The position numbers and the translations under genes were made by a program. A DNA stretch of 38,836 bases, from IMG/VR virus record IMGVR_UViG_3300017941_000198; one strand, written 5' to 3'. A model generated the notes under the pieces. The model was given only the letters and a program-made list of their open reading frames with translations. It made no database searches and was not told where the DNA came from. Source of the stretch: a virus. Of this stretch, positions 2,470-32,228 are shown piece by piece (the stretch's first letter is position 1; each line of letters begins with the position of its first letter).

Positions 2470-2871
2470 CTAATCGCTGAAAAAGCGGCCACTGATGAAT
2501 TCTATGAAGAATATGGTTATTAGGAATGCGTAGATTGCTCTTATTGCGTCTGCGATTACTTCAAACGCAAGTTGCCCTTGCGGATCTGTTATGTAACTTG
2601 TCTTTATGAAATCCAGAAACTTTGGCAAGCCATCAATGAGGTACTGTAGGTTCTGGTAAAGATAGCTGAAGCCTGCGAAGATGTCGCCTATTACGGGTAT
2701 GCCACTGAAAGGAGTTCCACCCCAACTAGTAGCGATTTTGGTGCTATTGAATTGCTGCTCATACTGCGTAGCATTCAAACTTGTTCCTGCGGCAACATAA
2801 GCTGTTCCTGGCAAGGCTAAACCCATAACTACGCCTACGCTCAAGTTAATTATGAACAAGCCAAGCAACAA
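2470..2871 (-). CDS. Putative virion membrane protein (hydrophobic N- and C-termini); may start at ATT 2889
   Basis: Hydrophobic ends, sequons NLS/NAT/NST, directly downstream of the spike-like gene. Confidence 0.7.
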   Translation of the reverse strand: MLLGLFIINLSVGVVMGLALPGTAYVAAGTSLNATQYEQQFNSTKIATSWGGTPFSGIPVIGDIFAGFSYLYQNLQYLIDGLPKFLDFIKTSYITDPQGQLAFEVIADAIRAIYAFLITIFFIEFISGRFFSD

Positions 2872-2912: not shown

Positions 2913-4202
2913 TCATGAATAAAGCATCCTTCTTCTTGCGGTTACGATGCCAGCCATGATGCTTAACGCTAAAGCAGTAACCAAGGCTGCGCTTGTTATT
3001 GGAATCCAACCCATCGCCGCCAAAATTATGGCTACAATAGTTGTTAATACTCCCCCTACTTCAGCAGATAATTCGCTGAAGCACCCAGCAACAAAGATGA
3101 TTAGCAAGGCTGGGATCATCCATGCGGTTGATATGGATAATGTGCCGAGGAAGTCTAAGCTAAATGGTGCTGTTGGCGTAGTGTATTCCCCTATCAAATA
3201 CTGTTTATAACTGAAAGACCCAAACGTTAAATGGTCAATGGCGACAGTTACTTCGTAGTTTGTAGCGTTATCAGCATAAGCCCATGTGTAACTAAACGTT
3301 TGATAACCTACGCCTGAAAAGACTTGCATAAAAGCTACTGTGCTGTCAGATGCGTTTGTGATTGTTATGGTTACGCTGTTCGTCATACTGGTTGTGTCTC
3401 CATAGCTTACGGTGATGCTACCAACTGGGTTTAAGAAGTCGCGTACTGCGTAAGCGTGAACGTACTGGTAAAGAAGCAAAGTTTGTTTAGGAAAATCAAC
3501 TCCTCGAAGAACTAGCTGAATTCCAGTGGTTGAAGATGGCGTTAAAAAACCATAAACAATATCATTTGCGTCATTAACTCCATCGCTTAAAACAATACGG
3601 TAACGGTGGCCTTCTTGCAAATTCATGATTACGGTGTTTTGAGCATCAACAGGTCGGTCATCAACGGTTGTGTAATTCATAACCGTATAAGTTGTATCTT
3701 CAATCTGGGCTTTTATAATTGGGTAACTTTTCAATTGCCCTACATAATCTAAAAAGGCAATTGTGTAAGTTGTTAATCCCGAAGTGGCACCCCAAAGAAT
3801 GTATGTGCCTGAAGTTTCAGTAAAGTCTGATTTTAGCCAGTATTCCCTATGGCTTGTAATTGAAAGCCCTGTTGTGTTGTCTGTTATGTCGTAGGCGAAA
3901 TAAATAGGAACAGTAGTGGTGTTAAAGGAGTAACCAGCTCCTCCGTTGCCATTGGTACTGAAAGTATCTGGTGGCGAATTTAGGTAATGCACAGTTACAT
4001 TAACATAAGCTGGGCTTCCATTTTTATATTTCAATGCTACGCCTGTGTTTTCGTCAATTGGTCCATAAAAATGGTAGTTGAATCCTGTTGCTTTAACTTT
4101 TGGGATAGAAGCAAAAGATACAACTAACAAAGTAGCTAGTAAAACTATTGCCATAACACTGAATATTTTTTTAGTACCCAAGTATTTGGCTATTTGGATC
4201 AA
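2913..4202 (-). CDS. Putative virion spike/adsorption glycoprotein: signal peptide, beta-rich ectodomain, about three C-terminal TM helices
   Basis: T/Y/S-rich ectodomain, six N-x-S/T sequons (NVT, NTT, NTT, NYT, NAS, NAT), C-terminal hydrophobic helices; architecture like fusellovirus VP4-type proteins. Start may be TTG 4181. Confidence 0.7.
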   Translation of the reverse strand: MIQIAKYLGTKKIFSVMAIVLLATLLVVSFASIPKVKATGFNYHFYGPIDENTGVALKYKNGSPAYVNVTVHYLNSPPDTFSTNGNGGAGYSFNTTTVPIYFAYDITDNTTGLSITSHREYWLKSDFTETSGTYILWGATSGLTTYTIAFLDYVGQLKSYPIIKAQIEDTTYTVMNYTTVDDRPVDAQNTVIMNLQEGHRYRIVLSDGVNDANDIVYGFLTPSSTTGIQLVLRGVDFPKQTLLLYQYVHAYAVRDFLNPVGSITVSYGDTTSMTNSVTITITNASDSTVAFMQVFSGVGYQTFSYTWAYADNATNYEVTVAIDHLTFGSFSYKQYLIGEYTTPTAPFSLDFLGTLSISTAWMIPALLIIFVAGCFSELSAEVGGVLTTIVAIILAAMGWIPITSAALVTALALSIMAGIVTARRRMLYS

Positions 4203-10450: not shown

Positions 10451-10532
10451 TTTTACGGTGACTTCCTTTGTTCATTTATTATATATGCGAAAGCTAATCC
10501 GATTAGGAAAGCTATTTCTATTATTATTTCAA

Positions 10533-10775
10533 TCATTTTTGTTTACTCTCCTGTTTCTTACTCCAAAAGGAAGGAAGCGATGCCAACGCAATAATTGCGC
10601 CTATAAGTAAACACGCTAGGCCACCAACGATTAACCAACTAGACAATAGAGCATACAGATTATTGAGAGCGATATTCTGTAGAGTTAATAGTCCGAAGCC
10701 GATAAGTCCAAGTGCAGCGAAAATGCAACTGACTGCCATTGTTGTGTATCCAGTTTTTAGTTTGTTTGCTTTCAC
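10533..10775 (-). CDS. Small two-TM membrane protein
   Basis: GTG 9 nt after GGAGG; two hydrophobic helices. Confidence 0.7.
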   Translation of the reverse strand: MKANKLKTGYTTMAVSCIFAALGLIGFGLLTLQNIALNNLYALLSSWLIVGGLACLLIGAIIALASLPSFWSKKQESKQK

Positions 10776-10776
10776 T

Positions 10777-10989
10777 TTATTTTTCCTCCTTGTTGACTGT
10801 TTTGTCGTAACTGGTGAAATCTCCTACAAAAGCACCTACAAAAGCAATCATAACCATAACGAATATAGCGGTAACAAAATATTGCCCTACATAAACAAAA
10901 GTTTCTTTTGAAAGAATAATTGTCACCATCATCGCTCCAAGCAAAGTTAATGCTCCAAAGAATCCTATCTTGAATATTTTGTATGTCAT
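10777..10989 (-). CDS. Small two-TM membrane protein
   Basis: Two hydrophobic helices; coupled to the RHH gene. Confidence 0.7.
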   Translation of the reverse strand: MTYKIFKIGFFGALTLLGAMMVTIILSKETFVYVGQYFVTAIFVMVMIAFVGAFVGDFTSYDKTVNKEEK

Positions 10990-11126
10990 TTCTCGTCACC
11001 ACTTTTTGTGGCAAAATAAAGTTCTAGCGCTTGGTTAATGTAGATGCTGAGATCGCCTTTTTTTCTGTTAAGTGTTCTTAATTTATCGTTGTTAGCTTTT
11101 GTTAAGTTGACTGTTATTCTGCACAT
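10986..11126 (-). CDS. Ribbon-helix-helix (CopG/MetJ-like) regulator, 46 aa
   Basis: Hand translation MCRITVNLTKANNDKLRTLNRKKGDLSIYINQALELYFATKSGDEK. Confidence 0.7.
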   Translation of the reverse strand: MCRITVNLTKANNDKLRTLNRKKGDLSIYINQALELYFATKSGDEK

Positions 11127-11130
11127 TATT

Positions 11131-11168
11131 TAATCACATAATCACATATACGCTTAATCTTAATAAGG
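11131..11168 (-). promoter_or_regulatory. Promoter/operator of the RHH operon: tandem TAATCACA x2 and an upstream TTATTAA box
   Basis: TAATCACATAATCACATA at 11131-11148, immediately upstream of ATG 11126. Confidence 0.5.
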
Positions 11169-11458
11169 TTTGTTAAAACATTTCTTTTAGGGGTTTACTG
11201 CAACCACCAAGGCAAACCAGTTTCATTAATCGACTTAACAGGCACATGAATGACATAAGGCTGAAGCAACCACAAAGCAACCGTGAACGCTACCGCAAAA
11301 ACAACCGATAAAACCGCAGCCCTTGGAAATCTCACAATCGTTTGTTATTCACCTTTGTTGCTAGTTATAGATTCTGTATAGTTGGCTAATTAAGTCGTAT
11401 CTTGTACAACGATATTTATGTTCATCAAGATTCCAAAGTTTCTCTTTCTCTCTGACTC

Positions 11459-11653
11459 TTAATCGCATGTTTTTGTCACTTTCTTACGAAATTTACGACT
11501 TACTGCGAGTAAGTTAGTTTCCAGAAAAGCCAATACTAAACTTATTCCGAATATCATCCAGTAATTTAAGGTGAAGAATATAAAATATTTCACGAGTGAA
11601 CCGCAAACAAAATTTATGATTGTCCAAATGACATACAATTTCTCTGTAGTCAT
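11459..11653 (-). CDS. Small two-TM membrane protein
   Basis: Hydrophobic; ATGA-type overlap. Confidence 0.65.
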   Translation of the reverse strand: MTTEKLYVIWTIINFVCGSLVKYFIFFTLNYWMIFGISLVLAFLETNLLAVSRKFRKKVTKTCD

Positions 11654-11916
11654 GTTGTAACTGCCTGAAACAAAGTTTCAATCGCAAAGTAACAGAAGCC
11701 GACAATCAAAAACCCAAGTAAACATTTCCAGCTCCTAGCATTACGGTAAATGTATAGTAACCCGAAAAACCCAATCAAAACAAACCCTCCGAAAAAAGGC
11801 GCTATCGTAGCAAAACGGTATTCAGCGATTGAACTTGCACCAAAAATGTAAGATTTCAAATCATCTAAGCCTCCAGACAACAAAAAAACACAAAACAGAA
11901 TCACAGAAGCAACCAA
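11650..11916 (-). CDS. Small multi-TM membrane protein (possible ATT start at 11934)
   Basis: Hydrophobic helices; GGAG 11 nt before an in-frame ATT. Confidence 0.65.
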   Translation of the reverse strand: MVASVILFCVFLLSGGLDDLKSYIFGASSIAEYRFATIAPFFGGFVLIGFFGLLYIYRNARSWKCLLGFLIVGFCYFAIETLFQAVTT

Positions 11917-11939
11917 AAGTTTCCGTATCTTAATTTTGC

Positions 11940-12209
11940 TTAACTCTCCTGAACTACTAAGTCAATAGTAGTATACTTACTAAGCATACTACGCAGTATT
12001 GGAATTTCTTTCAATGGTTTACCAAAAATCTTTCCAGTTGGCAATACTTGAATTTGATATGAGCCAATCTTACCTTTTTTGTTTGGATCACTAAGTTCTG
12101 TTTTAGGTACATAAACTGTGAAATGGTATATACCCATATCCAAATCTTTTTGTGGAATATGAACAGTAAAATATCCAGCTTTGAAATTATCTGATTTTAC
12201 TTCACTCAT
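11940..12209 (-). CDS. Hypothetical soluble protein, 89 aa
   Basis: ATG ORF in operon. Confidence 0.65.
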   Translation of the reverse strand: MSEVKSDNFKAGYFTVHIPQKDLDMGIYHFTVYVPKTELSDPNKKGKIGSYQIQVLPTGKIFGKPLKEIPILRSMLSKYTTIDLVVQES

Positions 12210-12285
12210 TCTTTCGCTTCCTTGTCGATTTTAAGACTTTGAGTTTTGCGGTCCTTGGCTTTTATTGAACTACGAAATTTCTTCA

Positions 12286-13365
12286 TTAAGCTCCAGCTCC
12301 AGGTTGCGCCCATTGACCGCCCCAACCAAACGAAAACGCAAAGTAACTTATCATGTAAACAACAAAAATATCCAGCAACGCCAAAACAAACACAAGCTTC
12401 CACCTGCCCTTTAACCCAGCTATTCCTACGCCAGCAAAGATTGACAAGGGCAAGCTAACGTAGTGAAGCCATCGGTCAGCCCAGAACGGCAACATAATTA
12501 AGTTGCCAAGTAAACCCCAAAGCACCAACTTCTCAAAATCACTTTTGCCCCGCTTAAACAAGAAAGGAATCCCCAGCATTGAAGCACCCATATAATAAGG
12601 AATGAAGCCTACTGGATCAGTCCAGAAAAGATGCTCCTGCGGATTCTCAGTTAAGCCGTAGCCTCCCCACTTCTGAACTGCACCGCCAATATATAACACT
12701 GATATAACCAGTACAGGAAGCACAGCTAAAGTAGCAGCAACAATAGTTTTTCGCCAAGCCTTATCCCTCAACTTATACAGGGCTAAACCATACACGTTGC
12801 TTAAAGCCGCTATCCCATGACTATACACCGTGACCAAAGCGTACCCGACAAACCTTACTTTCTTAGCACCCAACAATGCAGCCACAATCAAAGGGTACAA
12901 CAGCAAATCAAGACTTTCAGGACGCACCTGCAACGCACCATCAAAGAAACTCCAACTTGCAAACAAAACCATCCCCGTAAACACAGCCGCTTTAGGCGAA
13001 CCAAAGCGATAGACAAGCCACATAGTAGCCGCTAAAGTACAAGGCAAAAACAACACTTGCAAAACACGAGCAAATAAATAAGCCTGGCCAAACCAAACCG
13101 AAGGAACCAACAAAAACTCAAATAAGCTAACATAGAAACCATAAGGAAACTTTATGTCAGCTAAATTATAGTTTACAGCACCAGAAATGTTACCTTTAGC
13201 CAACAGTTGAGCTATTGAAAGGTGATAAAAAAAATCAGCGCCGACCGGATAAGTTGTGGAGAGAACAACCGCTAAAGTAGATGCAAATGCTACAGCAATA
13301 ATTAGGATGCAGAGAAACCAAAAAGGCTTAGTTACCTGAAGTTTCCGCATTTTTACGCCACTCAT
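12286..13365 (-). CDS. GT-C-fold (PMT/ArnT/AglB-like) membrane glycosyltransferase
   Basis: About 9-10 TM helices; external loop YPVGADFFYH after TM1; loops RPESLD and DRWLHY. Confidence 0.65.
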   Translation of the reverse strand: MSGVKMRKLQVTKPFWFLCILIIAVAFASTLAVVLSTTYPVGADFFYHLSIAQLLAKGNISGAVNYNLADIKFPYGFYVSLFEFLLVPSVWFGQAYLFARVLQVLFLPCTLAATMWLVYRFGSPKAAVFTGMVLFASWSFFDGALQVRPESLDLLLYPLIVAALLGAKKVRFVGYALVTVYSHGIAALSNVYGLALYKLRDKAWRKTIVAATLAVLPVLVISVLYIGGAVQKWGGYGLTENPQEHLFWTDPVGFIPYYMGASMLGIPFLFKRGKSDFEKLVLWGLLGNLIMLPFWADRWLHYVSLPLSIFAGVGIAGLKGRWKLVFVLALLDIFVVYMISYFAFSFGWGGQWAQPGAGA

Positions 13366-13645
13366 GCAAATCTAACTGTTCTCTAAGACTTAGCTTCTTC
13401 CATTGCCCTAGCTTACCAAGTCGAAGTCTCAACTGCACAGCTTTAACATAAGCCAAAACACAGATAACAAACTCAGCAACCATACAAACACCGAAAATAT
13501 CAGCTAAAACTAAACTACTAATGTTAAGAGCAAAAATAGCCATAACAATGCCAACCAAACCTGCAAAAAGAGAACTATCCAGCAATCTAAGCACTTCATT
13601 TTGAGTTATGGGTTTTTTCTCCGTGATTTTCACCACCTTAAGCAT
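13328..13645 (-). CDS. Two-TM membrane protein
   Basis: Hydrophobic core, operon-coupled. Confidence 0.7.
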   Translation of the reverse strand: MLKVVKITEKKPITQNEVLRLLDSSLFAGLVGIVMAIFALNISSLVLADIFGVCMVAEFVICVLAYVKAVQLRLRLGKLGQWKKLSLREQLDLHEWRKNAETSGN

Positions 13646-13648
13646 TCA

Positions 13649-13801
13649 TTAAATCAGCAACAGCAAGAAGCCTGAGTGCTGACTCAAAAGCCAAGCCGCA
13701 ATCACAAAAGAAGCAATAACAGCACAAATAGCGAAAGCTGACCATATAGTTATATCCTTATACCACTTATGTAACTTAGCTTTCAAATCAGCCCAATTCA
13801 T
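13649..13801 (-). CDS. 50-aa membrane peptide paralogous to the C-terminus of the upstream 239-aa protein
   Basis: Hand translation MNWADLKAKLHKWYKDITIWSAFAICAVIASFVIAAWLLSQHSGFLLLLI. Confidence 0.65.
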   Translation of the reverse strand: MNWADLKAKLHKWYKDITIWSAFAICAVIASFVIAAWLLSQHSGFLLLLI

Positions 13802-13802
13802 T

Positions 13803-14522
13803 TTAGATTAGCGCCAACAGGAAACTTGAGTGCTGAGTTAACAAGTAAACAATCAGCCCCAAACTGCCAATCACCATAACCGCTGCAATCGCCAAGTAAA
13901 TAATTTTCATCTGCTCCTTACCAGCCATCTTAATCCCCTTAATCTTGCTATAAGTATGCAAAGCATCAAGTTGAGTCTGCGTTAAAGTCTCTGGAATAAT
14001 CTCTCTTATCCGAGTCAAGTCAGCATGGGCCACAGTAGAAATATTCGTAAGCATAGGTTGATTGACACACCCAACAAACAAGGGCTTACCAACACCTTCC
14101 AAAATAGGACACTGCAAAACCTCAGTTAACGCTTCACGGCTATCTTTACTTAAAACATCTATAGCTTTGCCATCTTGAGTTTGAGCCTTTTCTTCATTAC
14201 TTGGCCTTCCAGGTCCACGCTGAGAAGTAGTGTTGCCAAGGTAAGGAGTTTGAGGACGCAAAAACCATTTACCCCTAATCAAAAACAATCCTTCCGGCAG
14301 TTCTCCATTGCTAAAAAGTAGCCGAACCACATTATTATCTTGAATCAACGCTGCCAACCCCTTGGACCACTTCATTGCCCTAGCATGTTTAGCGAAAGAA
14401 GTCATAATGAAAAACTCATGGACCGTAATCACAATTACAAAAGCGATTCCTACTGCTATGGCAATAAAGAACCACATAAATGCGGGTAAACCTAGAAACG
14501 TGTTTAATTCTTCAAGAGCCAA
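13803..14522 (-). CDS. 239-aa protein with N- and C-terminal TM helices (putative morphogenesis protein)
   Basis: TTG start after GAGG; TM at both ends. Confidence 0.8.
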   Translation of the reverse strand: MALEELNTFLGLPAFMWFFIAIAVGIAFVIVITVHEFFIMTSFAKHARAMKWSKGLAALIQDNNVVRLLFSNGELPEGLFLIRGKWFLRPQTPYLGNTTSQRGPGRPSNEEKAQTQDGKAIDVLSKDSREALTEVLQCPILEGVGKPLFVGCVNQPMLTNISTVAHADLTRIREIIPETLTQTQLDALHTYSKIKGIKMAGKEQMKIIYLAIAAVMVIGSLGLIVYLLTQHSSFLLALI

Positions 14523-14536
14523 CCTTAATCAACCTC

Positions 14537-15004
14537 TTACTTTTTCTTGTTCAAATCCACTTCTAACCGTCTTACTTGCTCAGTTATCAAGTGGCCTTTC
14601 CAACCGTCTTTTCCATCCGTAATCTGTGTTTCCGCAAGGATTTCTAAGCCTTGAAAAATTCCCATAGCACCCTGCTCATAAATGCTCGGCTCCATCGTTA
14701 ACTTAGCCATAGTGAAAAGAATCTGGAAATCATAGTACATTATTTCAGCTTCATGGTTACTTAGCTTAGTTGTTCGATTCACAGACTGAAACGCTGGCAC
14801 AAACATGCGTAGATGCGGATGCTCCATAAAGAACTGCTCCATAGTTGGACTATTCAGCAAGTAACCGATTTTGCCTATCATAGCAACATAATCTTGCTCT
14901 GGGCTAGAAGTATTTGGGTTCGCCATGTCTTGATGCGCTGCGGCAGCACTGAAGTCAAAAGCTTTATCGTCTTTTTTGCGTAGCCAACCTAACGGATTAA
15001 CCAC
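14537..15004 (-). CDS. Hypothetical helical protein, 155 aa
   Basis: GTG start with GAGG RBS and upstream AAAATTATATAAG box. Confidence 0.8.
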   Translation of the reverse strand: MVNPLGWLRKKDDKAFDFSAAAAHQDMANPNTSSPEQDYVAMIGKIGYLLNSPTMEQFFMEHPHLRMFVPAFQSVNRTTKLSNHEAEIMYYDFQILFTMAKLTMEPSIYEQGAMGIFQGLEILAETQITDGKDGWKGHLITEQVRRLEVDLNKKK

Positions 15005-15136
15005 TTTTAAACCTCTAATAATTAATTTAATTACATGTTAATGCTTATATAATTTTCCTAATTTGTAACATCTTTTTGGGAAAATACCAATAAACTTAAA
15101 AATAATACAACATAATTAAACTAATAGGACTAATTT

Positions 15137-15529
15137 ATGACTGAACGCCGAAGTAACGACCAAAACCCAAGCGGAATATGGCAAGGTATCTGGGCAAACC
15201 TATATAACCAATTTTTTGAGCAAATGACATTCGGCAATTACTCCGCGGCATGGGACACAGCATTATCTATTCAAACTGTGATTCCCCCAGACTGCCAAGA
15301 AGACACCAAAGAAGAATATGATAAAGTTTCTCAAGTATTCGCGAAACCTATTTCTTCTTTCCATTATGCATCTGCGCTTCAACAAAAACATCGACAAATC
15401 AACATAGAGACACCAAAGGTACTGAGGGATTTAATTAGAGCTGTTACAAAGAGCCTCTATGACAAAGGTTGGATAAACAAAGATTTTACCGCAAAACCAA
15501 AAGAAACTAGACCCGAAGGTAAACTCTAA
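15137..15529 (+). CDS. Hypothetical protein, 130 aa, coupled to the ATPase
   Basis: TAATG overlap with the ATPase. Confidence 0.8.
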   Translation: MTERRSNDQNPSGIWQGIWANLYNQFFEQMTFGNYSAAWDTALSIQTVIPPDCQEDTKEEYDKVSQVFAKPISSFHYASALQQKHRQINIETPKVLRDLIRAVTKSLYDKGWINKDFTAKPKETRPEGKL

Positions 15530-16575
15530 TGAATAGTGACCCAGCACCAACTCAAGAACAAATAGATGCAGAAATCGCAAAGTTATCTGAAGAGGTAGCA
15601 ACAACGATAGATGTTAACCTTAAGCAAAAGTTCAAAGAAGAAATGAAGTACAAGGTTATCCGTGACGTTTGGCACGCAATCTTAGATGATTCATGGATGT
15701 ACGTGGTAGTATGGAGCGAACCACGCAAAGGAAAAACCACGTGCAAAATGCGAATAGCCTATACCATTTATCACGATTGGGAAATGGTTTTAGATTGTAT
15801 CTTTTTCAACTTATCCGGCTTACTCCACAAAATGAACCATAATTTACCCCTGAGAATTTTAGAGCAAAGACACCGACTTCACAACAGAATACCAATGTTG
15901 ATTGGTGATGATTGGGGAGCGCAAGGTAACAAGGCAAAGACAAGAGATGAACCTGCTTGGGACTTACTTAAGGGTGCTTGGGATACGTACGCAACAAAAA
16001 TATCATGCGTATTTGTTAGCATGAACCAACCAGACGAAATAACAAAACAATTAGCTAGCAAATATACACATGAACTCTACTTACCGACTAGAGGAATAGC
16101 TAAATATGATTCTGTTGGCTGGAACCAAAACTTTTATGGTTGGCAACCATACCAAGATAAAGATTGGAAACAAAGTTTCGAGTTTGATGAAGTACCATTA
16201 GATATTTATAAGCGTTATGATGAACAAAGAATGAGCCTAGTTGATGAACTAAACATAGCAATAGAAGACAAAATAATTGAGAATGACTTAGAACGAACCA
16301 TAAAAAGAATGATACCAGGAGATTATGATTTGTTGCAAACGATTTATCAAGAAGGACCAATGAGCGAATATGATATTAAAAACACCAATGATCCAGAAAC
16401 AATCAAGGAAGCTATCAAACGCTGTAGGGCAAGAAACCTTTTAGTGACAGTTAGAGGCGCTGGGAGTCATTATAAGCAAGACCTAACAAATTTAGGGTTA
16501 GAAATTCTTAAGGTTAAGCATCTGCAAACCGTTGATCCAAAAGAACTAAAGAGACAGCTACATGCACAAGATTAA
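15529..16575 (+). CDS. P-loop ATPase with a C-terminal winged-helix domain (putative packaging/assembly ATPase)
   Basis: Walker A variant SEPRKGKTT, Walker B MLIGDD; C-terminal LLQTIYQEGPMS...DLTNLGLEIL is wHTH-like. Confidence 0.75.
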   Translation: MNSDPAPTQEQIDAEIAKLSEEVATTIDVNLKQKFKEEMKYKVIRDVWHAILDDSWMYVVVWSEPRKGKTTCKMRIAYTIYHDWEMVLDCIFFNLSGLLHKMNHNLPLRILEQRHRLHNRIPMLIGDDWGAQGNKAKTRDEPAWDLLKGAWDTYATKISCVFVSMNQPDEITKQLASKYTHELYLPTRGIAKYDSVGWNQNFYGWQPYQDKDWKQSFEFDEVPLDIYKRYDEQRMSLVDELNIAIEDKIIENDLERTIKRMIPGDYDLLQTIYQEGPMSEYDIKNTNDPETIKEAIKRCRARNLLVTVRGAGSHYKQDLTNLGLEILKVKHLQTVDPKELKRQLHAQD

Positions 16576-24120: not shown

Positions 24121-25017
24121 TCATTTTGAAACCTCGAATAGTGATGTTTTATTTGCCGTAGATGAAGGTGACAGTTTACGAGCAATTACAATATCTTGCC
24201 CATTAAGACAACTTTTTCTTCCACTCCAAAAACCATAGTAAATTGGCTCTGTCACAGTTAACTTGTGATTCTTGTAGAGGTCACGAATAAGTTGTTCATC
24301 ATAAGCAACCGCGCTTTCTGGAGTGATAGAGTCAACAGTAAATACGCCATCACCGATTTTATATTTGAAATCAAATGCGTTCTGTTTACTTATTTCTGTT
24401 TCTTTGTTTAATAAGAAAAATGTGACCAAAACTTTTCCATTAGGTTTTGTTACTCGAACAATTTCTGAGAGGTATCTTTCTATTTCTTTTAGTAGCATGT
24501 GAGTAAATACAGATGTGAGAAAAACGAAGTCAAAATGATTATCGGGGTATGGAAAGTTGAAGTTGGTAGCAGCATCTTTTCCTTTGGGATTAAAATTTGA
24601 GTTTTGAATATCCACAAATCTAAAGTGAAAGTTCGGAAACTCAGGTGCGATGTTCTTCCTTGCCCAATTTACCTGTTCAGCGTCAACATCGAAGCCTTCA
24701 TAGATACCTTCTTCATTCAGATATTGTGTTAAAGCAACAGCTATCCTGCCAACACCACAACCTACATCAAGAACTTTATCATTGTGTTTTAACTCGCCAA
24801 GTTCAATAAAACATTTAAGGAAATCTTTTCCGACAGATTTAAAATCAGAAATACTTGTACTGCCAACAAGTCTTCTTAGTTTCATGGGGGGTACAAGTTT
24901 GTCTCGTTGGTTAAGCAATCTTTCTTTTAAATCTACCCCCATATAAAAAATATAAAAAATTTCGTTTCTTAATTTTCTTAATAGAACTTTCATTTTATCA
25001 ATCATTAGCTCGCTCAC
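24121..25017 (-). CDS. Class I SAM-dependent methyltransferase
   Basis: VLDVGCGVGR; FDFVFLTSVFTH. Confidence 0.9.
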   Translation of the reverse strand: MSELMIDKMKVLLRKLRNEIFYIFYMGVDLKERLLNQRDKLVPPMKLRRLVGSTSISDFKSVGKDFLKCFIELGELKHNDKVLDVGCGVGRIAVALTQYLNEEGIYEGFDVDAEQVNWARKNIAPEFPNFHFRFVDIQNSNFNPKGKDAATNFNFPYPDNHFDFVFLTSVFTHMLLKEIERYLSEIVRVTKPNGKVLVTFFLLNKETEISKQNAFDFKYKIGDGVFTVDSITPESAVAYDEQLIRDLYKNHKLTVTEPIYYGFWSGRKSCLNGQDIVIARKLSPSSTANKTSLFEVSK

Positions 25018-25898
25018 TCCATTAAGTTTTTAAGAAACACAGGCAACTCTCCGTATTTATCGTTGCCATAAGGTATGAGATTTTTTTGGTTATCATTCAT
25101 TATTTTATTTTGGGCATCTGATAGACTCATGTGCCAATCATTCTTAACCCTATAAATCGTGTAATCCAACAGACTAGGAAAGCGTGGATCTTTTGCAATA
25201 AAATAGTCTGCCAAGAACATCCGCATAAGCATCCGTTTAGGATTCTTAATATTACAATGGAAAATGTAGGGTTCACGCCATCGCAGTATTCTGTACCACG
25301 GTGGAAAACGATGCCCCCAAACACTATCGCCACAGACCTGCTCCCAATAATTGTTTTTCAATGCCCATTTAAGTTCTGGACTCCAAGTGAAAAGTCTTGC
25401 TTCGTAAATTCCGAATGGACAGTTCTTTGGCTGATGCTTCAAGTCACCTTCAAAATTCACTCTAGGAAGGTTAATTACAAAATACTCTTTCTTGTCCAAC
25501 CTGCCAAGCCTATCTTTCCATTCCATCAGGGCTTCAGGACTCTTGGCAACGAAATCGCCATCCCACTTAAACACCCACTTATAATTAGCATTGACTAAGC
25601 CTATGTGTAACGATAGAGCAAAAGCATGAACATTTTCACAGTAGAATTGTATATGCTTGATTTTATCACATTTTTTTGCTAACGATTCAATTATGTTGGT
25701 AGTATTATCTTGGATTGAGCTGTCAACAATTATGATTTCGTCTGCTACAGGCTCTATGGATAAAATGCAGGGTTTAATCCATTGTTCCTCATCTTTAACT
25801 GCAATGATAAAGGTTATTCCTTCTTTGTGGAAATTTGGTTTCTTCACTAATCCAAGTTTAGGCAACACAGCCAAACAAGAGCGCAAGGTAGCCTTCAT
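25014..25898 (-). CDS. GT2 (GT-A) glycosyltransferase
   Basis: ITFIIAVKDEE, IIIVDSS, WVFKWDGD. Confidence 0.88.
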   Translation of the reverse strand: MKATLRSCLAVLPKLGLVKKPNFHKEGITFIIAVKDEEQWIKPCILSIEPVADEIIIVDSSIQDNTTNIIESLAKKCDKIKHIQFYCENVHAFALSLHIGLVNANYKWVFKWDGDFVAKSPEALMEWKDRLGRLDKKEYFVINLPRVNFEGDLKHQPKNCPFGIYEARLFTWSPELKWALKNNYWEQVCGDSVWGHRFPPWYRILRWREPYIFHCNIKNPKRMLMRMFLADYFIAKDPRFPSLLDYTIYRVKNDWHMSLSDAQNKIMNDNQKNLIPYGNDKYGELPVFLKNLME

Positions 25899-25901
25899 TT
25901 T

Positions 25902-26612
25902 TTAATTCTCCCGAACTATAAACCAATCTGGATAAGAGGTATAGAGGCTAAGTTTATTGCTTTCAACAAATTCTGTTACTGCCTTTACGACTCCACCATG
26001 GATGAAAGTGTAGTCATGCCCTCCAAGAACTCCGCCTACTCGTATATGTGGATACCAAGATTCTATGTCTTCTTTAACGTTTTTGTATTCATGGTTCGCA
26101 TCTATGTAAACGAAGTCTAATGGTTCCTGTATTTTTTTGCTCGCATTCACACTAGGTTCAATAAGCCACACCACAGGCTTATCCTTCAAAACAGAAAAAG
26201 CAGTATCTTTAGCGTTAACATGGGCGCTGTTGATTAATTCGTTCTCAAAATAACGAGTATATGGATCAATAGCGTATAGTTGTTTCAAGTTGAGCAGTTT
26301 AAACATGCTCTCAGCGTTTGCTCCAGCACTAACTCCGATTTCTGCTCCAACAAGATTTTTCAGATGACAATGGGCGATATATTTTATCATAGGTCTTGGC
26401 AAATCGTTTATGGGAGGGTGAAAATACATTTCTTTAAAACAAGAGTAAACCTTTGGAGTAAGAACATGCATCAAGATTAACACCAGCTTTAATCTTAGAT
26501 TATATGTTGCTGACGCAATCTTCAATCTTTTACCTCCATGCGACTCATTAAAGATTGTATCAATGCTAATCGTTGCTTGTATTCTGGATGACGGAGGTTG
26601 CACATCGAGCAA
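25902..26612 (-). CDS. Methyltransf_24-type SAM methyltransferase
   Basis: GAEIGV, FVYIDANHEY, GGVLGGHDY. Confidence 0.88.
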   Translation of the reverse strand: MLDVQPPSSRIQATISIDTIFNESHGGKRLKIASATYNLRLKLVLILMHVLTPKVYSCFKEMYFHPPINDLPRPMIKYIAHCHLKNLVGAEIGVSAGANAESMFKLLNLKQLYAIDPYTRYFENELINSAHVNAKDTAFSVLKDKPVVWLIEPSVNASKKIQEPLDFVYIDANHEYKNVKEDIESWYPHIRVGGVLGGHDYTFIHGGVVKAVTEFVESNKLSLYTSYPDWFIVREN

Positions 26613-27601
26613 ATATCATTTTCTTGGAGGTTAAGTATCCTCATCTTCCAAAAATCCTTAATTGATTTTCCTTCTTTCATGTAATCTTTAATGTCGCCAT
26701 ACTTCAAACTTCTTTCAGCACCCCAACAACAACACTGAAGCAAATCGCCATGAACATTGATTGAGCCGTTACCCCACAAGACGCAAGGCCACCCCATAGG
26801 TGGGGCAGTATGTTTAAACTGGTAAGCCGTTATATTGATTTTTGATATTGCTTCTTCCTGCATCTCCAAAGTTAAATTGCCCAAAACATGTTTGCTGGGA
26901 ATTGTATAATCATTAATAACCAAAGGACTGAAGACGCGTTTGAAATCTGGAAACGTAGCACCCACTAGTTCCCACCAATCATTCATGTAAGCAAAGTTAT
27001 CCTTAGTGATAGTATAATGAACCTCAATCTTTTGATTACTACATCGGTGCTCATCTACGTAATGTAGAGTCTTTATTACTTGTTCAAATTTATCGCCACG
27101 ATGAACTTTCTTGTATATTTCTCGGTTAGATGCTGAAAGTGTAAAACAAGCGCTATCCAAGTTCTTGTCACAAAATAGAAAAGCTCTCTCAGGTTTAGAA
27201 CCACAGCTAAAAGTGTTAGTAGGCAGCCAACCCACAAGTTTATCGTGTGACTTCAAAATCTCTGGCAAGCGCAATTCGTTCTGTGGGTCGCCGTCAAGGA
27301 AATATCGGCAATCCTGGCAATTACTATGAAGCCGCGGCATATTCTCAGCCATGTCTTTTTGAATGTACTCTATTGCTTCCATGCTCATTTCAGCGTAAAA
27401 ATCCTTCTTGCAAAGCTTATTCCACGTGGGGTAACAATAGGAACAGTTTATACCGCTGTATTTAGGATTAGGACCACAGTAATTACTAGTTTCAATCTGA
27501 ACGGTAGTTGGATATTTTAGCCAATGGTATTTGCCATCGATAACATCAATCACTTCGTTGCGTACCATATTGTAATAGGTTCTTGGTCTATGCAACTTCA
27601 T
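26522..27601 (-). CDS. Radical SAM protein with a SPASM/twitch-like C-terminus and atypical CX10CX2C motif
   Basis: QIETSNYCGPNPKYSGINCSYC; CVLW...HGDLLQCC...ICSMC. Confidence 0.8.
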   Translation of the reverse strand: MKLHRPRTYYNMVRNEVIDVIDGKYHWLKYPTTVQIETSNYCGPNPKYSGINCSYCYPTWNKLCKKDFYAEMSMEAIEYIQKDMAENMPRLHSNCQDCRYFLDGDPQNELRLPEILKSHDKLVGWLPTNTFSCGSKPERAFLFCDKNLDSACFTLSASNREIYKKVHRGDKFEQVIKTLHYVDEHRCSNQKIEVHYTITKDNFAYMNDWWELVGATFPDFKRVFSPLVINDYTIPSKHVLGNLTLEMQEEAISKINITAYQFKHTAPPMGWPCVLWGNGSINVHGDLLQCCCWGAERSLKYGDIKDYMKEGKSIKDFWKMRILNLQENDICSMCNLRHPEYKQRLALIQSLMSRMEVKD

Positions 27602-27786
27602 AGGTTGCTACCACCACGCCAGTTTCTTATACTGACCTCGAGTATTGGATGTAAATTACGTGTATGTACATCTCCAAGTTCAAAGAAGATTTCATCCTCA
27701 TCCACAGACAGGAAAAAGCCTCGTCTTGATTGAACATGTATATTCGCATGTTTCAGCTTCTCAAAAATTTTCTTTTTAATATTCAC
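27598..27786 (-). CDS. Hypothetical protein, 62 aa
   Basis: Tightly coupled within the cassette. Confidence 0.6.
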   Translation of the reverse strand: MNIKKKIFEKLKHANIHVQSRRGFFLSVDEDEIFFELGDVHTRNLHPILEVSIRNWRGGSNL

Positions 27787-27787
27787 T

Positions 27788-28366
27788 TTAATGATTAACT
27801 CCTTTGATTATCCAAACTAATGTGAAAGTTACTCTTAGCAACAAATGTTGAAATGCAACTCTGTAATCTCGGAAGGGAATAAAAAAGCGTAACGGGTCAT
27901 CATCAAAGTTTCTTTTATATTTCACGTACATGCGGCAGAACTCCCATGTGACAGGAACAATTCGTTTTGTTTTATAGAAAGCATGAGGGTGCGGAATATG
28001 CTTAGCAAAATCTGGCGATAACACTTTCAGTTTTAAACCTGCTTGTTGAGCTCTAAAAGCAAAGTCGCCATCTTCAAAGCAATACTTAAGTTTTTCATCA
28101 CAACCGTGTAATTGCCAAAAATCTTCAAGATAAACTGCGAAGACACGACTACACAGATGTTTGCCTTCATGGGTTAAAATGAATTCTCCATGTTTCAATT
28201 GAAGAATTACATCCCAGATTTTAGGTGAAATAACAAGATCGTCATTGAACTGAACCATTAAGCCACAACAACCGAACTCTTTAGCAGCAACATTTCTTGC
28301 TTTGCCATAACCTAATGTACGGCAAAAAATTAGTTTGTGCGGTACTGGGCAGTTCAGTGTTTCCAA
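27788..28366 (-). CDS. Short GT2-like glycosyltransferase (N-terminally reduced)
   Basis: YGKARN, VQFNDD, GCDEKLKYCFEDGDFAFR. Confidence 0.75.
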   Translation of the reverse strand: METLNCPVPHKLIFCRTLGYGKARNVAAKEFGCCGLMVQFNDDLVISPKIWDVILQLKHGEFILTHEGKHLCSRVFAVYLEDFWQLHGCDEKLKYCFEDGDFAFRAQQAGLKLKVLSPDFAKHIPHPHAFYKTKRIVPVTWEFCRMYVKYKRNFDDDPLRFFIPFRDYRVAFQHLLLRVTFTLVWIIKGVNH

Positions 28367-28417
28367 CGTTTTAATTTTTTCTTTCGGCTTTAAGGTTATG
28401 ATCGCTATATCGAGCAG

Positions 28418-29764
28418 TTACGGCACCCTCCGTCTAGTCTTTTTGTACAAACTTCTCAAGGTTGATGCCATCGGAAAGTTAGAATGCCTTAGCCAATACT
28501 TCAATTGGTTCTGATCTTTATTGTAGCCATCAACTGCCTTTTGGATATAATCGTAATCAACACCTTTTATTTTGTGTTCTCCAATATAACGTGAAGCATA
28601 CTCATCAATAATCAAATCATTTCGGCAACAGTAATCATGCAAGTCGCTTCCTGGGTAGGGGCTAAAAGTTGCTACACTAAGATGTTCAGGTTTCATTTCT
28701 CGAACCATACTCATAGTCAAGTCTATGTCTTCATGGGTTTCAGTTGGTAGACCCATTAAAATGTTGGCAAATATTTTTATGCCATTTTCATGTAGGATTT
28801 TTGCTGCCTTCAGATTGGTTTCTCTTGTTGTTCCTTTCCGCAGAAACTTCAAGATTTTGTCACTTCCAGATTCAAAGCCGACAATAGCCATTTCCAAACC
28901 CATATTTTTCAATGCCTTGATTATTTCTGGATGCTGAACTGGATAGTTAGCCCTTGACTGAATAATGAAAGGTTTCGGTTCTTCTATTGTATGCAAATAA
29001 TAGTCAATGAATTGTTTAACCCAATCTATATTCTGGAGAAAGCCATCATCATGAATCATCCAACTTTTGAAGCCAGCGCGTTCATGCAACCAAACAAGTT
29101 CGCTAATAACATTTTGAACGCTACGTCTTCTTTCTTCGTTTCCAAACATTGTTCTAGAGCAAGGGAAACAGAAAAAACAGTTTTGCAAACATGACCTACT
29201 GGTTAATATTGTCACGAATGGTTGCTTTCCAGAAAATTTCAATCCCCAAGGATACTCATTCATCCATAATGTTCTGTCAATAAAGGGGATTGAGTCTAAA
29301 TCTACTGGTTCACCTACCAACACTCTTTGAGAGTTTACCCCAACTTTGATGCAGTTTAATAAGTGAGCAAGAGCAACTTCCCCTTCCTTCTGAATAATAA
29401 AGTTTACACGGTTGTCATCACTGAAATCTGAAAGCTTCACAGTGGGATGAACGCCACCAGCAACAATAGTTGCTGAAGGATTAACTTTTTTCAGATGACT
29501 CAAACATTCAAGATAGACAGAGTAATCAATTGTGTTAACACTGAAACATACAACATCATAGACAGCAATTTTTGCTTCATAATCAACCCAACCGCTAAGC
29601 CTTCGAGTGTCAATTAAATCAAGTTGAACACCTTGTTTTTTCGCATAAGCAATCAGCAACGCTACTCCATGATTAATCCAGCGGGTAGTCCAATCATAAC
29701 TTATTGATGCTTGAAAGATTCTGCTACTTGGCAACACAATACACGCTTTCAAGTTATACACCAA
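28418..29764 (-). CDS. Cobalamin-binding radical SAM enzyme (class B methyltransferase-like)
   Basis: IVAGGVHPT B12-binding region; TSRSCLQNCFFC; GFESGSDKIL. Confidence 0.9.
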   Translation of the reverse strand: MVYNLKACIVLPSSRIFQASISYDWTTRWINHGVALLIAYAKKQGVQLDLIDTRRLSGWVDYEAKIAVYDVVCFSVNTIDYSVYLECLSHLKKVNPSATIVAGGVHPTVKLSDFSDDNRVNFIIQKEGEVALAHLLNCIKVGVNSQRVLVGEPVDLDSIPFIDRTLWMNEYPWGLKFSGKQPFVTILTSRSCLQNCFFCFPCSRTMFGNEERRRSVQNVISELVWLHERAGFKSWMIHDDGFLQNIDWVKQFIDYYLHTIEEPKPFIIQSRANYPVQHPEIIKALKNMGLEMAIVGFESGSDKILKFLRKGTTRETNLKAAKILHENGIKIFANILMGLPTETHEDIDLTMSMVREMKPEHLSVATFSPYPGSDLHDYCCRNDLIIDEYASRYIGEHKIKGVDYDYIQKAVDGYNKDQNQLKYWLRHSNFPMASTLRSLYKKTRRRVP

Positions 29765-29780
29765 TCTTTAACTTTTTGCT

Positions 29781-30776
29781 TCAATCAAACTCACCTATTA
29801 ATTCTGGATTATCAAAACATTTCTCGCAATAATAATTGCCGTCAACAGGGTTGAACATCACTTTTGTAACTGTCATCCCACAGTCTGAACATTGATAATG
29901 TTTCTGTCTACTTGGACCTTTAAGTAAACCCCATGCGTAATAAAATCTGATAAGAGGATGAATGTAAGTTACTGTAGCATCTCTTGTTTTAAGAGCTACA
30001 AAGAGTCCGCTGAAAGGCGCAAGAAACAGCCGGTAAATAACACTCCAAGTGTTAACTGGAGATTTCATCTGGATCTTACTCATTGCTCGCCAAATATCTT
30101 TAATCTGAGTGCCATACCAACGTTGCCTTTCCAATTCATCAAATAAACCTTTCCGCAAGTGAATGCTTTGAACATTATAATCTACCTTCCAATTGTAGCC
30201 ATACTTTTTTAATGTCCAAGCTAATACTGTATCGACACCAGCATTAACATTCATAACTGGAAACCCGCCAATTTTTCGCATAACTTCTGTGCGGTAAATT
30301 GTGTTATCTAAAGTCTTACCTAAAGTAAAAGCGTTAGCTTCTCGACTGCGAAGCCATGGGCTTAATTGTTCACCGCGATACTTCTTAGCCACATACTTGA
30401 AAAGCGTAGTCATGCCTTTTGGCTGAGAAACAAAACGCATTCCACTACTAGCAGCCAAATCAGAATCAAAGAACGGCATAGCAACTTTGCTCCACCAATC
30501 CTTAGCTAAAATAACATCTTGCTCGAAACTACAAAAAACCTCTGTTTCAACATATTTTAAAGCTGTGTTAGCTCCATCACTAATTCCAGAGCCCTTGTTT
30601 AAGTAAACATCCCAACCTTTAGCTGAAGCTATATCTCTCGTAGCATCTGCGCTTCGATCATCAACAATAAATTTGTCGTGAACAACTTTTTTAGGGATGA
30701 CTTGGTTGATTCTATCTAAAACTGTACCAAGAGTCCTCTCACCATTTCGAGTCCACATACAAATATCTATTTGCAC
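29781..30776 (-). CDS. GT2 glycosyltransferase with a C-terminal Zn finger
   Basis: IDICMWTRNGERTL, FIVDDRSADAT, SFEQD; CSDC...CEKC; GTG 30776 preferred as start. Confidence 0.85.
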   Translation of the reverse strand: MQIDICMWTRNGERTLGTVLDRINQVIPKKVVHDKFIVDDRSADATRDIASAKGWDVYLNKGSGISDGANTALKYVETEVFCSFEQDVILAKDWWSKVAMPFFDSDLAASSGMRFVSQPKGMTTLFKYVAKKYRGEQLSPWLRSREANAFTLGKTLDNTIYRTEVMRKIGGFPVMNVNAGVDTVLAWTLKKYGYNWKVDYNVQSIHLRKGLFDELERQRWYGTQIKDIWRAMSKIQMKSPVNTWSVIYRLFLAPFSGLFVALKTRDATVTYIHPLIRFYYAWGLLKGPSRQKHYQCSDCGMTVTKVMFNPVDGNYYCEKCFDNPELIGEFD

Positions 30777-30780
30777 TTTT

Positions 30781-31836
30781 TCACAACCACCCTTTAAGGT
30801 GTAGGTACATGATTCCGGTAACACACACCGCTACATAAGAAACGAGCAAAACAAGAAGCCACCAATATTCACGCTTCATCATCTTCCCATTAAATCTTAA
30901 ACCAATTCTACTTGCTAAATTGTATAAGTGAAATCCCAGTGACTTCAGAAACATCGGTACGCCATCCTTAAAACTCCGTTGCAAACTAAACAGTAAAAAT
31001 ATTCTTCCGCGCAGGGTTAACGGAACATAAAATCGTTTAATCTCTACTTTTTTGAAACCATTATTTCTTTTAAACACATCAAGACTTGGATGATTGCCCA
31101 TACGAGCATAAACAAGCCAATGCAAATTCCTATCAGAACATATTTTTACAGCCTTCGCAATCAAAGCATTATTCGGCATCACATCACGAAAAGAAACTAA
31201 ACTCAATATTTGACCAAAGACACCTGTATCTTCTCCACATTGAAGTTCAACAAAACCAACCAACTTATGCTTGAGAAATACATCTCCATCCGACTTTTCT
31301 TCTACCCAAATATACGCGCCTATAATGATGTTGTCAGTTGTAAACACATGTTGCTGTACACTTTCTAATGAAACCCCATAATGGTTAAATCGTCTAAATT
31401 GCCGGATAGGAGTCTCATTATAAATCTTCCAAATACCCTCTGCTAATTTAACTCCTTCTTTCACATCACTAAACGGCGATGAACGCGCATTCGGATCAAT
31501 AATTTTAACTTCAAGCCCTTTTTCTCTCGCCTTCATAAGCCGCGTCTTTGTTTCTTTCGGCAGTTGCTTCAACCAATCTTCATAACTATCAAACTCTGCG
31601 GCAGCAACATTATCACGGCAAACTTTAGCTTTAAACGGAACATTATAAAACTCGTTACACCAAGTTCTCTCGCAGAAATTTAACACATCTATCTCTTTTG
31701 ATTGAAAACTTTTAGGGCTAGGGCAGAAATCCTGTAAGTATTCTGTTGGGCTCTTTCCTATTGTGGCAAATAATTTTCTGTTTAAAACCAATGATTGTGT
31801 TTGGCACTCACGTTCAGCCTCAAGAGACAAACCCAT
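30781..31836 (-). CDS. FemAB/GNAT-fold acyltransferase-like protein with a C-terminal TM helix
   Basis: KTRLMKAREKGLEVK, IYNETPIRQ, NNALIAKAV, LDVFKRNNGF; ATG 31836 overlaps upstream TGA. Confidence 0.75.
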   Translation of the reverse strand: MGLSLEAERECQTQSLVLNRKLFATIGKSPTEYLQDFCPSPKSFQSKEIDVLNFCERTWCNEFYNVPFKAKVCRDNVAAAEFDSYEDWLKQLPKETKTRLMKAREKGLEVKIIDPNARSSPFSDVKEGVKLAEGIWKIYNETPIRQFRRFNHYGVSLESVQQHVFTTDNIIIGAYIWVEEKSDGDVFLKHKLVGFVELQCGEDTGVFGQILSLVSFRDVMPNNALIAKAVKICSDRNLHWLVYARMGNHPSLDVFKRNNGFKKVEIKRFYVPLTLRGRIFLLFSLQRSFKDGVPMFLKSLGFHLYNLASRIGLRFNGKMMKREYWWLLVLLVSYVAVCVTGIMYLHLKGWL

Positions 31837-32228
31837 CAAGTTGCAACCTCCTTGAACTGCCAAACTTTAGAATCATGCCGCTGAGGCAATGTCTCATAAT
31901 GTTTCTTGCAAAATCTATGCTCTTTTTTACTTAGAAGATTTATTCCAGCAACGGCAGCTTTAAGTTTGCAGGAATTAATGGAACATTTACCAAGTGAAGT
32001 TAATTTGGTTTGGTCATAGTTAACTAATGTTGTTTGAGGATTGCCACCTTGATCTAAATGATGTTGCACAAACAAAAGTCGGATAGCTTCTCGAAGTAAA
32101 TCACCAATTTCTAAATCATCCTGGATAGCTAATTTTTTAAGATTTCTTATAATTCCTTCGTCTTCAATGTTCTTAGCCTTGAATGTAGCATACTTGAGCT
32201 TACTATTGATGTCTGGTAATTTCGTCAT
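31836..32228 (-). CDS. RHH-like regulator fused to a Zn finger
   Basis: LKKLAIQDDLEIGDLLREAIRLL; CSINSC...FCKKH. Confidence 0.65.
   Translation of the reverse strand: MTKLPDINSKLKYATFKAKNIEDEGIIRNLKKLAIQDDLEIGDLLREAIRLLFVQHHLDQGGNPQTTLVNYDQTKLTSLGKCSINSCKLKAAVAGINLLSKKEHRFCKKHYETLPQRHDSKVWQFKEVAT

Follow-up and report, generated by a model that had tools for sequence, protein, structure and literature searches.

The protein encoded at positions 12286-13365 of the window, by which we mean the whole stretch of 38,836 nucleotides analysed here, is predicted to have the GT-C glycosyltransferase fold, an assignment that is well supported by structural modelling. It belongs to a divergent, unannotated family inside a known enzyme class and is carried on an archaeal integrated element. 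The protein is probably a stripped-down GT-C glycosyltransferase, reduced to the membrane domain only, that would draw on dolichyl phosphate for a single sugar and attach it to an acceptor at the outer side of the membrane. The features of the window are listed in Table 1.

Table 1. Features of the window referred to in the text.
Feature	Position	Strand	Remarks
133-aa membrane-anchored protein, candidate glycoprotein	2470..2871	-	Sequon-enriched; 72% identical in L001
429-aa protein, candidate glycoprotein	2913..4202	-	One N-terminal and two C-terminal membrane helices
88-aa protein, three membrane helices	11650..11916	-	48% identity in L001; no family match
Minimal GT-C fold glycosyltransferase ORF	12286..13365	-	359 aa, ~11 membrane helices, no soluble domain
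105-aa single-helix membrane protein	13328..13645	-	Stop overlaps GT-C start by 38 nt
239-aa protein, N- and C-terminal membrane helices	13803..14522	-	Upstream in the run; 60% identity in L001
Soluble protein, 155 aa, opening the minus-strand run	14537..15004	-	64% identity in L001
AAA+ ATPase, 348 aa, mobile-element marker	15529..16575	+	phrog_5484, DnaA-like, E 1.5e-10; divergent from the GT-C run
Small tyrosine recombinase, 216 aa	16729..17379	+	Similar small integrase adjoins the L006 GT-C homologue
Glycan cassette	24121..31863	-	Two GT2 genes, two methyltransferases, B12-radical SAM enzyme, radical SAM enzyme
Cassette GT2	25014-25898	-	PDB sequence match: GmaR only
Cassette methyltransferase	25902-26612	-	Homologue present in L004
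Cassette GT2	29781-30824	-	No PDB sequence match
360-aa protein	30781-31863	-	No GT2 match in Pfam, no PDB match, one C-terminal helix

An AlphaFold2 model of the protein, calculated from an alignment of 27 sequences, had a mean pLDDT of 91.8 and a pTM of 0.91. When this model was compared with the PDB using Foldseek, all significant matches were GT-C enzymes, with a probability of 1.00 for 40 GT-C entries, and the matches included ALG9, ArnT, STT3, PglB, AglB, ALG12, AftA, Pmt4, AftD, Emb, ALG6, DPY19 and ALG3. The VIA search, which is independent of Foldseek, was carried out against 48,161 chains. Its top 20 were all GT-C-fold chains, with Z scores of 12.9-23.8 covering residues 8-354, while the next score (Z = 5.6) belonged to designed helical repeats. 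The highest scores were obtained with human STT3B (23.8), PglB (23.6), AglB (23.0), Pmt4 (22.7) and Pmt1/2 (22.4), followed by ArnT (21.1) and ALG12 (20.9), down to ALG6 (12.9); three of the top 20 chains are the PIG-U subunit of GPI transamidase. The neighbours of the protein in the ESM Atlas were STT3 and PMT_2/ArnT clusters. The GT-C class had been proposed in an earlier note on this DNA, with AglB, PMT and ArnT as the structures for a Foldseek comparison, and the model bears this out. A transporter fold was rejected, as nucleoside and ABC transporters appeared in the Foldseek searches of the PDB and BFVD only at probability ≤0.2 and TM ≤0.2.

The best structural matches are the membrane domains of STT3/PglB/AglB, PMT and ArnT, which align with Z = 21-24 over ~300-330 residues and share with the protein an acidic residue that opens the first outer loop. 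In contrast, the sequence identity to these enzymes is 6-13%, and the protein is about half as long, has fewer helices (11 against 13) and lacks both a soluble C-terminal domain and a MIR domain. The chain stops 14 residues past the last helix. The sequence did not match the STT3 profile PF02516 or the profiles PF13231 and PF02366 (ArnT/PMT_2/PMT), so that the likeness to the latter is one of fold only, and the WWDYG motif is absent. An identity as an oligosaccharyltransferase (OST) was rejected, because the protein lacks the soluble domain, the WWDYG motif and a match to the STT3 profile.

More generally, no family in Pfam, NCBIfam or PHROGs matched the ORF, with no Pfam hit below E = 2.9, and the PDB returned no match either by sequence or by family profile. 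Even with the threshold relaxed to E = 10, a tblastn search of INPHARED was without a match, and a scan of IMG/VR with the GT-C alignment yielded no confirmed relative. Relatives were nevertheless numerous elsewhere: a word-indexed search gave 29 of them with 40-99% identity, and an exhaustive search gave 126 cluster representatives, 102 of which had E-values below 1e-10. One representative comes from a Heimdallarchaeaceae MAG. The ORF has a second in-frame ATG at codon 6, giving a 354-aa form that is the one called in other assemblies.

The earlier note had described a polytopic protein with a GxDxxYH motif in an external loop, and this description agrees with the model. The motif (P40-V-G42-A-D44-F-F-Y47-H48) lies 5-13 residues past the first membrane helix (residues 13-35). 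In the alignment of the 127 family members of at least 300 aa, conservation reaches 88% for G42, 97% for D44 (123/127) and 94% for H48, and the residue at position 47 is an aromatic one. Residues G42, D44, H48, G58, Y75, D142, Q146, P149, H183, D297, R298 and Y302 are all retained in 85-100% of the 127 sequences. Judged by this conservation, the motif is not a chance occurrence.

The topology was derived from the helices of the AlphaFold2 model in combination with the positive-inside rule. The protein is predicted to have 11 membrane helices, with the N-terminus inside and the C-terminus outside. The N-terminus was placed inside because it carries three Lys/Arg residues, and the loops 119-125, 166-171, 198-206, 271-275 and 318-323 were assigned to the cytoplasm because each of them carries two to five. 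With this topology, D44 is located in the predicted first outer loop, nine residues after helix 1. The predicted outer loops and outer helix ends also include H48, Y75, D142, Q146, E150, D153, H183, Q243, D297 and R298, and every polar residue conserved in the family lies on the predicted outer face. In GT-C enzymes such as ArnT, PglB and PMT, an acidic residue opens the first outer loop and is accompanied by basic residues able to hold phosphate. D44 would be the catalytic base or a metal ligand, with the phosphate and the sugar bound by R298, H183, D142 and Q146.

The GT-C gene is part of a tight run of minus-strand genes that extends from ~15004 to ~9800 and whose products are mostly small, carrying one to three hydrophobic helices. 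This is consistent with the earlier description of the gene as embedded among membrane genes, and the run is syntenic in the related locus L001. Owing to the overlap between the two reading frames, the 105-aa protein and the GT-C gene are assigned to one transcription unit. To compare the context of the gene among relatives, we used seven metagenome loci and seven genome loci, with co-occurrence assessed on the seven metagenome loci. The metagenome locus L001, taken from a 41.7-kb contig, shows synteny to the window over positions 2470-15529. Its GT-C gene (63% identity) occupies the same place, between homologues of the genes at 13803-14522 and 11650-11916, the latter being the only downstream neighbour that is kept beside the GT-C gene. 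Small three-helix proteins without a family match, of which the product of 11650-11916 is an example, are present in the window.

Other relatives are found in more varied surroundings. At L006, a relative with 33% identity ends a run consisting of a GT2, an NAD-dependent epimerase, another GT2 and a GT2-methyltransferase fusion, and it adjoins a 210-aa integrase. At L004, a GT1 and a homologue of the cassette methyltransferase of the window come after the relative. L007 had no recognisable neighbours, and there was no other neighbour in common among L003-L007. Glycan genes thus co-occur with the GT-C gene in three of the five informative elements. In this small sample, their co-occurrence is not universal. 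In MAGs of Aenigmarchaeota and Micrarchaeota, homologues with 28-30% identity are found on large contigs of chromosomal origin, where these DPANN genes lie between those for a CBS-domain protein, a CCA-adding enzyme and a CDP-alcohol phosphatidyltransferase. The family thus has ordinary cellular members as well, and their location among housekeeping genes offers no hint of function.

The nature of the sugar donor is suggested by relatives in which a GT2 domain precedes the GT-C body. Such an N-terminal domain is present in six cluster representatives (533-589 aa, plus one of 478 aa). In a FastTree phylogeny of 135 sequences, the GT2 fusions appeared in at least four places, and one pair of them, P0032/P0033, is sister to the clade of the window. 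Enzymes of the DPMS, ArnC and GtrB type load a single sugar on polyprenyl phosphate for use by GT-C enzymes. The best PDB match to the fused GT2 of P0032 was the dolichol-monophosphate-mannose synthase (DPMS) of Pyrococcus furiosus (5mlz, E 4.4e-17), and the next were three ArnC entries and GtrB. At the Methanobacterium locus L013, a 472-aa distant relative, which just passes the STT3 N-terminal profile, adjoins a DPMS-like GT2 and an LPG_synthase_TM protein. Because the fused domains resemble DPMS, ArnC and GtrB, and because of the neighbours at L013, we propose a dolichyl-phosphate monosaccharide as the donor; the sequences of these relatives point to it.

The window itself contains a glycan cassette, and the earlier note had proposed that its GT2s and tailoring enzymes build the donor. 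In this specific form the proposal is not supported: none of the GT2 proteins of the window resembles a polyprenyl-phosphate sugar synthase and no flippase was found. With no membrane helix predicted in them, the cassette GT2 proteins would be soluble. Their comparison with the PDB gave no match to DPMS, ArnC or GtrB, and with a hidden Markov model (HMM) of the fused GT2 domains the best score in the window was E = 0.02 (7.9 bits), compared to 4e-10 for the GT2 next to the GT-C relative of L006, which is donor-synthase-like by this measure. No polyprenyl-phosphate sugar synthase of the GtrB/DPM1 type was recognised in the window, no GtrA-, Wzx- or MATE-like flippase was found among its multi-helix proteins tested by Pfam, and no initiating phosphoglycosyltransferase was found in it. 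We therefore assume that two of the three components, the synthase and the flippase, are derived from the host. The cassette is a possible partner of the GT-C enzyme, but the dolichol-phosphate sugar pool of the host would be a simpler source of the donor.

The earlier note had also pointed to the many N-x-S/T sequons in the structural proteins. Comparison with shuffled sequences, from which the expected numbers were derived, showed enrichment in only one of them. In the 133-aa protein, three sequons were counted where 0.47 are expected (p about 0.003). A marginal case is the 429-aa protein, with seven sequons (six had been counted previously) where shuffling predicts 3.6 (p about 0.06). The 719-aa ORF, previously described as a glycoside hydrolase (GH), is not enriched (8 versus 11.3 expected), and a 917-aa protein is depleted (2 versus 6.8). 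Two of the three sequon columns of the 133-aa protein and three of the seven in the 429-aa protein are common to the homologues in L001. The open-ended 719-aa ORF had no Pfam or PDB sequence match; its feature score to GH5 clusters was only 0.81, and a single-sequence AlphaFold2 model had a pLDDT of 37.6 and was unusable. Whatever their number, the sequons cannot be taken as a sign of the action of this enzyme: without the soluble, sequon-binding domain of an OST, the counts say nothing about it. Any use of the sequons would be by the AglB of the host.

The fold, the conservation and the topology of the enzyme, together with the GT2 fusions and the synteny, are the results from which its donor class, acceptor and biological role are inferred below. 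The enzyme would sit in the cytoplasmic membrane of the host with its active site facing out. A GT2 of the DPM1/GtrB/ArnC type, for this element probably that of the host, would make the dolichyl-phosphate-linked sugar on the inner face, after which it would be flipped, and the GT-C enzyme would move the single sugar from dolichyl phosphate to an extracytoplasmic acceptor. The most likely acceptor would be a glycan that surface or membrane-anchored glycoproteins already carry; a lipid is less likely. Both the surface proteins of the element and the surface glycoproteins of the host would be decorated, since the enzyme would work in the host membrane, into which the membrane proteins of the element are also inserted.

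Among known systems, the final step of the Haloferax AglD/AglR/AglS route and the serotype-converting GtrC of temperate phages come nearest as working models. The AglD/AglR/AglS system of Haloferax volcanii follows the same logic: mannose-charged dolichyl phosphate is made inside the cell and flipped, and the mannose is added outside to an N-linked tetrasaccharide (PMC3871713). There, too, a GT2 loads the dolichyl phosphate and a membrane enzyme adds a single sugar to an attached glycan (PMC3871713); the likeness drawn here is one of logic. The system described here differs in that it is borne by a mobile element and in that sister proteins carry the synthase as a fused part instead of having it encoded by a separate gene. 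A bacterial precedent is provided by the phage GtrABC and related three-component systems (PMC11194591). Like GtrC, the protein is a polytopic non-Leloir transferase on an integrating virus-like element, with a polyprenyl-phosphate-monosaccharide donor predicted on the outer face, and its relatives are fused to a GtrB/DPM1-like GT2. Unlike GtrC, it has no sequence relation to phage records, and in an archaeal host the carrier would be dolichol. Furthermore, neither a GtrB-like nor a GtrA-like gene was recognised on the element, and its GT-C gene lies inside the membrane block rather than beside att/int.

The alternatives that we considered differ in the acceptor, in the role of the enzyme, or in whether it is an enzyme at all. 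The pathway of the earlier note, in which the cassette at 24-32 kb builds a lipid-linked glycan and the GT-C enzyme transfers the whole block to N-x-S/T sequons in the manner of an OST, is decidedly improbable. The catalytic subunits of OSTs, STT3B, PglB and AglB, are indeed the closest structures, the cassette and the GT-C gene are on one element, the relative at L006 ends a GT2 cassette, and two membrane-anchored proteins are rich in sequons. However, the enzyme lacks the features that led us to reject an OST identity, the GT2s of the window, without a membrane helix, have no sequence match to initiating or dolichyl-phosphate-type transferases, neither an initiating phosphoglycosyltransferase nor a flippase was found, and host AglB would suffice for sequon use. 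Glycosylation of membrane lipids or lipid-linked intermediates, by which the membrane that the particles acquire would be remodelled, is in our view improbable, but a serious alternative. ArnT acts on lipid A and PimE on phosphatidylinositol mannosides, and the small GT-C enzymes without soluble domains (ALG3, PimE and PIG-M) use lipid-linked acceptors. ALG3, PimE and PIG-M are among the structural matches at Z = 14.5-16.4, in addition to the higher-scoring ArnT, and the Aenigmarchaeota homologue is two genes from the CDP-alcohol phosphatidyltransferase. On the other hand, it is the OST and PMT groups, which modify proteins, that come closest in structure, and nothing in the window ties the GT-C gene to lipid synthesis.

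The protein might also have retained the GT-C fold without catalysis, acting as a scaffold or a dolichol-binding membrane protein in particle assembly, as PIG-U does in GPI transamidase. The PIG-U chains among the structural matches (Z = 13.9-14.3) and the location of the gene among morphogenesis-like membrane genes would fit such a role. Nevertheless, we regard it as very improbable: the acidic residue in the first outer loop and an Arg close to the outer face are near-invariant in the family down to ~25% identity, and only in an active transferase would the repeated fusion to a GT2 that makes the donor be meaningful. A different kind of alternative is lysogenic conversion, in which the GT-C enzyme of the integrated element would alter those host glycans that serve as receptors, on the S-layer, pili or archaella, and thereby block superinfection. 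It is a proposal on biological role alone and does not conflict with the chemistry proposed here. Receptor masking or superinfection exclusion had been suggested in the earlier note. The phage GtrABC systems, which act on the O-antigen (PMC11194591), provide the analogy, the element is integrated and has integrases, and a small integrase adjoins the GT-C homologue at L006. However, in both the window and L001 the GT-C gene is inside a conserved block of membrane-protein genes and not in a separate accessory unit, and we consider conversion rather unlikely. We thus prefer the transfer of a single sugar from dolichyl phosphate to an outer-face acceptor.

Evidence on the carrier comes from identical copies of its genes in other assemblies. 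The identical ATPase was found on 53 contigs and the identical GT-C protein on 33, and the longest contig for both is 423,092 bp, which indicates that the element is integrated in a recurrently assembled organism. For two pairs of GT-C and ATPase homologues, the contig records matched, with seven contigs (the longest 51,589 bp) for one pair and one contig of 19,444 bp for the other; this hints that the two genes travel together. There are two tyrosine recombinases in the window, and no tRNA genes or terminal repeats were found within it. Of the proteins that would mark a Fuselloviridae-like spindle-shaped virus, the DnaA-like ATPase was recognised by its phrog_5484 match. The candidates for a two-helix hydrophobic major capsid protein and for a VP2-like protein had no Pfam or PHROG match, the ATPase and the 429-aa protein had no BLAST-level match to any deposited virus, and the ATPase alignment gave no confirmed relative in IMG/VR. 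A virus-encoded status is plausible from the sequence, based on one ATPase match and the integrases.

Viral proteins of similar structure were found in BFVD. The best matches at probability 1.00 included three uncharacterised proteins, one from Oenococcus phage phiS13 (V5UQY6, 445 aa, E 1.8e-3) and two from Nitrosopumilus spindle-shaped viruses (A0A514K300 and A0A514K2W1), which are 338 aa (E 6e-3) and 326 aa (E 2e-2) long. The TM scores of the best BFVD matches were 0.47-0.57, and the next match was ATV ORF545, at probability 0.63. Sequence searches, including profile searches, revealed no similarity between the GT-C protein and these viral look-alikes. The Nitrosopumilus virus proteins, at 326-338 aa, are similar in length to the GT-C ORF, a likeness that is otherwise structural only, at E-values of 6e-3 to 2e-2. 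As a lead, the modelled structures suggest that spindle-shaped archaeal viruses repeatedly carry small proteins resembling GT-C enzymes.

Spindle-shaped viruses of archaea are known to have glycosylated capsid proteins, and the glycosyltransferases that we know of in archaeal viruses are soluble enzymes. A full-text search of the literature found no description of a GT-C enzyme on an archaeal virus. A glycosyltransferase, its type unstated, has been annotated in both NSV1 and His1 (PMC8491892). For Huangdivirus, a proposed spindle-shaped provirus of Bathyarchaeia, a virus-borne glycosyltransferase and glycosylation of the virion have been proposed (PMC10541130). It resembles the element described here in being an integrated, spindle-type element of archaea from anaerobic sediment, with sequons in VP1 and VP3 (PMC10541130). 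It differs in having a single glycosyltransferase, for which the available text of that description gives no type and does not mention GT-C (PMC10541130). We tentatively suggest, as a conjecture that may well prove wrong, that a small GT-C protein devoid of a soluble domain is a recurrent, unannotated component of spindle-shaped archaeal viruses, present in this element and its relatives and possibly in the viruses of Nitrosopumilus. It would give them an extracytoplasmic glycosylation step of their own, fed by dolichyl-phosphate-linked sugars, that decorates the virion, re-codes the host surface, or both, as an archaeal counterpart of phage seroconversion.

Since the family has no profile in Pfam, NCBIfam or PHROGs, its members lack annotation in the genomes of archaea, DPANN and Asgard MAGs among them, and its repeated fusion to a dolichol-phosphate sugar synthase provides a clear and testable hypothesis for the donor. 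With a membrane GT-C enzyme, such an element would be able to modify glycans on the cell exterior, the site of receptors, S-layers and budding particles, and this is the step that temperate phages use for surface conversion.

A candidate for a compact three-component glycosylation unit was found at locus L013, in a Methanobacterium sp. metagenome-assembled genome (MAG), where a relative of the GT-C protein of the window lies beside an LPG_synthase_TM protein and a DPMS-like GT2. This 472-aa GT-C is transcribed divergently from the other two genes, and barely clears the threshold of the STT3 N-terminal profile. Around the cellular GT-C homologue of L008 and L011, the synteny is common to two Aenigmarchaeota MAGs: the gene is flanked by those for a four-CBS-domain protein and the CCA-adding enzyme, and next come a pair of small proteins with four helices each, of which one is a CDP-alcohol phosphatidyltransferase. 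At the metagenome locus L006, the element that carries a cassette-linked GT-C homologue has further genes for a 783-aa surface protein (DUF2341 plus LamG-like), for an HNH endonuclease and for an integrase of 210 aa that is similar to the 216-aa integrase of the window.

Locations of the features described
Feature	Location
L006 element, regions noted	L006:1643-3994; L006:11551-12183
Aenigmarchaeota shared synteny	L008:9040-13328; L011:9004-13275
Methanobacterium three-gene unit	L013:4424-7668
917-aa protein	window 4981-7734
50-aa ORF	window 13649-13801
239-aa protein	window 13803-14522
105-aa protein	window 17991-18308
InsA-type zinc-ribbon protein	window 22819-23325
ParB N-terminal domain protein	window 23267-23962

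In the window, the glycan cassette is followed directly downstream by the ParB-domain and zinc-ribbon genes (together 22819-23962), an arrangement suggestive of a module for partition or regulation. The C-terminal membrane anchor of the 50-aa ORF is nearly identical to that of the adjoining 239-aa protein (E 5e-5, with 50% identity across 32 aa); in both, a hydrophobic tail runs up to the stop codon. The 105-aa protein, which has three helices, is similar to a portion of Peptidase_M50B (E 9.7e-6) at 25.9 bits, just below the cut-off of 26 bits; it may represent a site-2-protease-like membrane protein in truncated or minimal form.

N-x-S/T sequons are under-represented in the 917-aa protein, with 2 seen against 6.8 expected from shuffles, 99% of which contained two or more. 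In this it contrasts with the 133-aa and 429-aa candidate glycoproteins encoded downstream of it. Its weak PHROG match (E 0.0045) is to an internal virion protein that carries an endolysin domain.

The viral proteins in BFVD whose structures best match the AF2 model of the window GT-C are polytopic, uncharacterised proteins from spindle-shaped and other viruses: A0A514K300 and A0A514K2W1 of Nitrosopumilus spindle-shaped viruses and V5UQY6 of Oenococcus phage phiS13 (all with probability 1.00), and Q3V4U0, ATV ORF545 (0.63). All four may be viral GT-C enzymes that have so far gone unrecognised.
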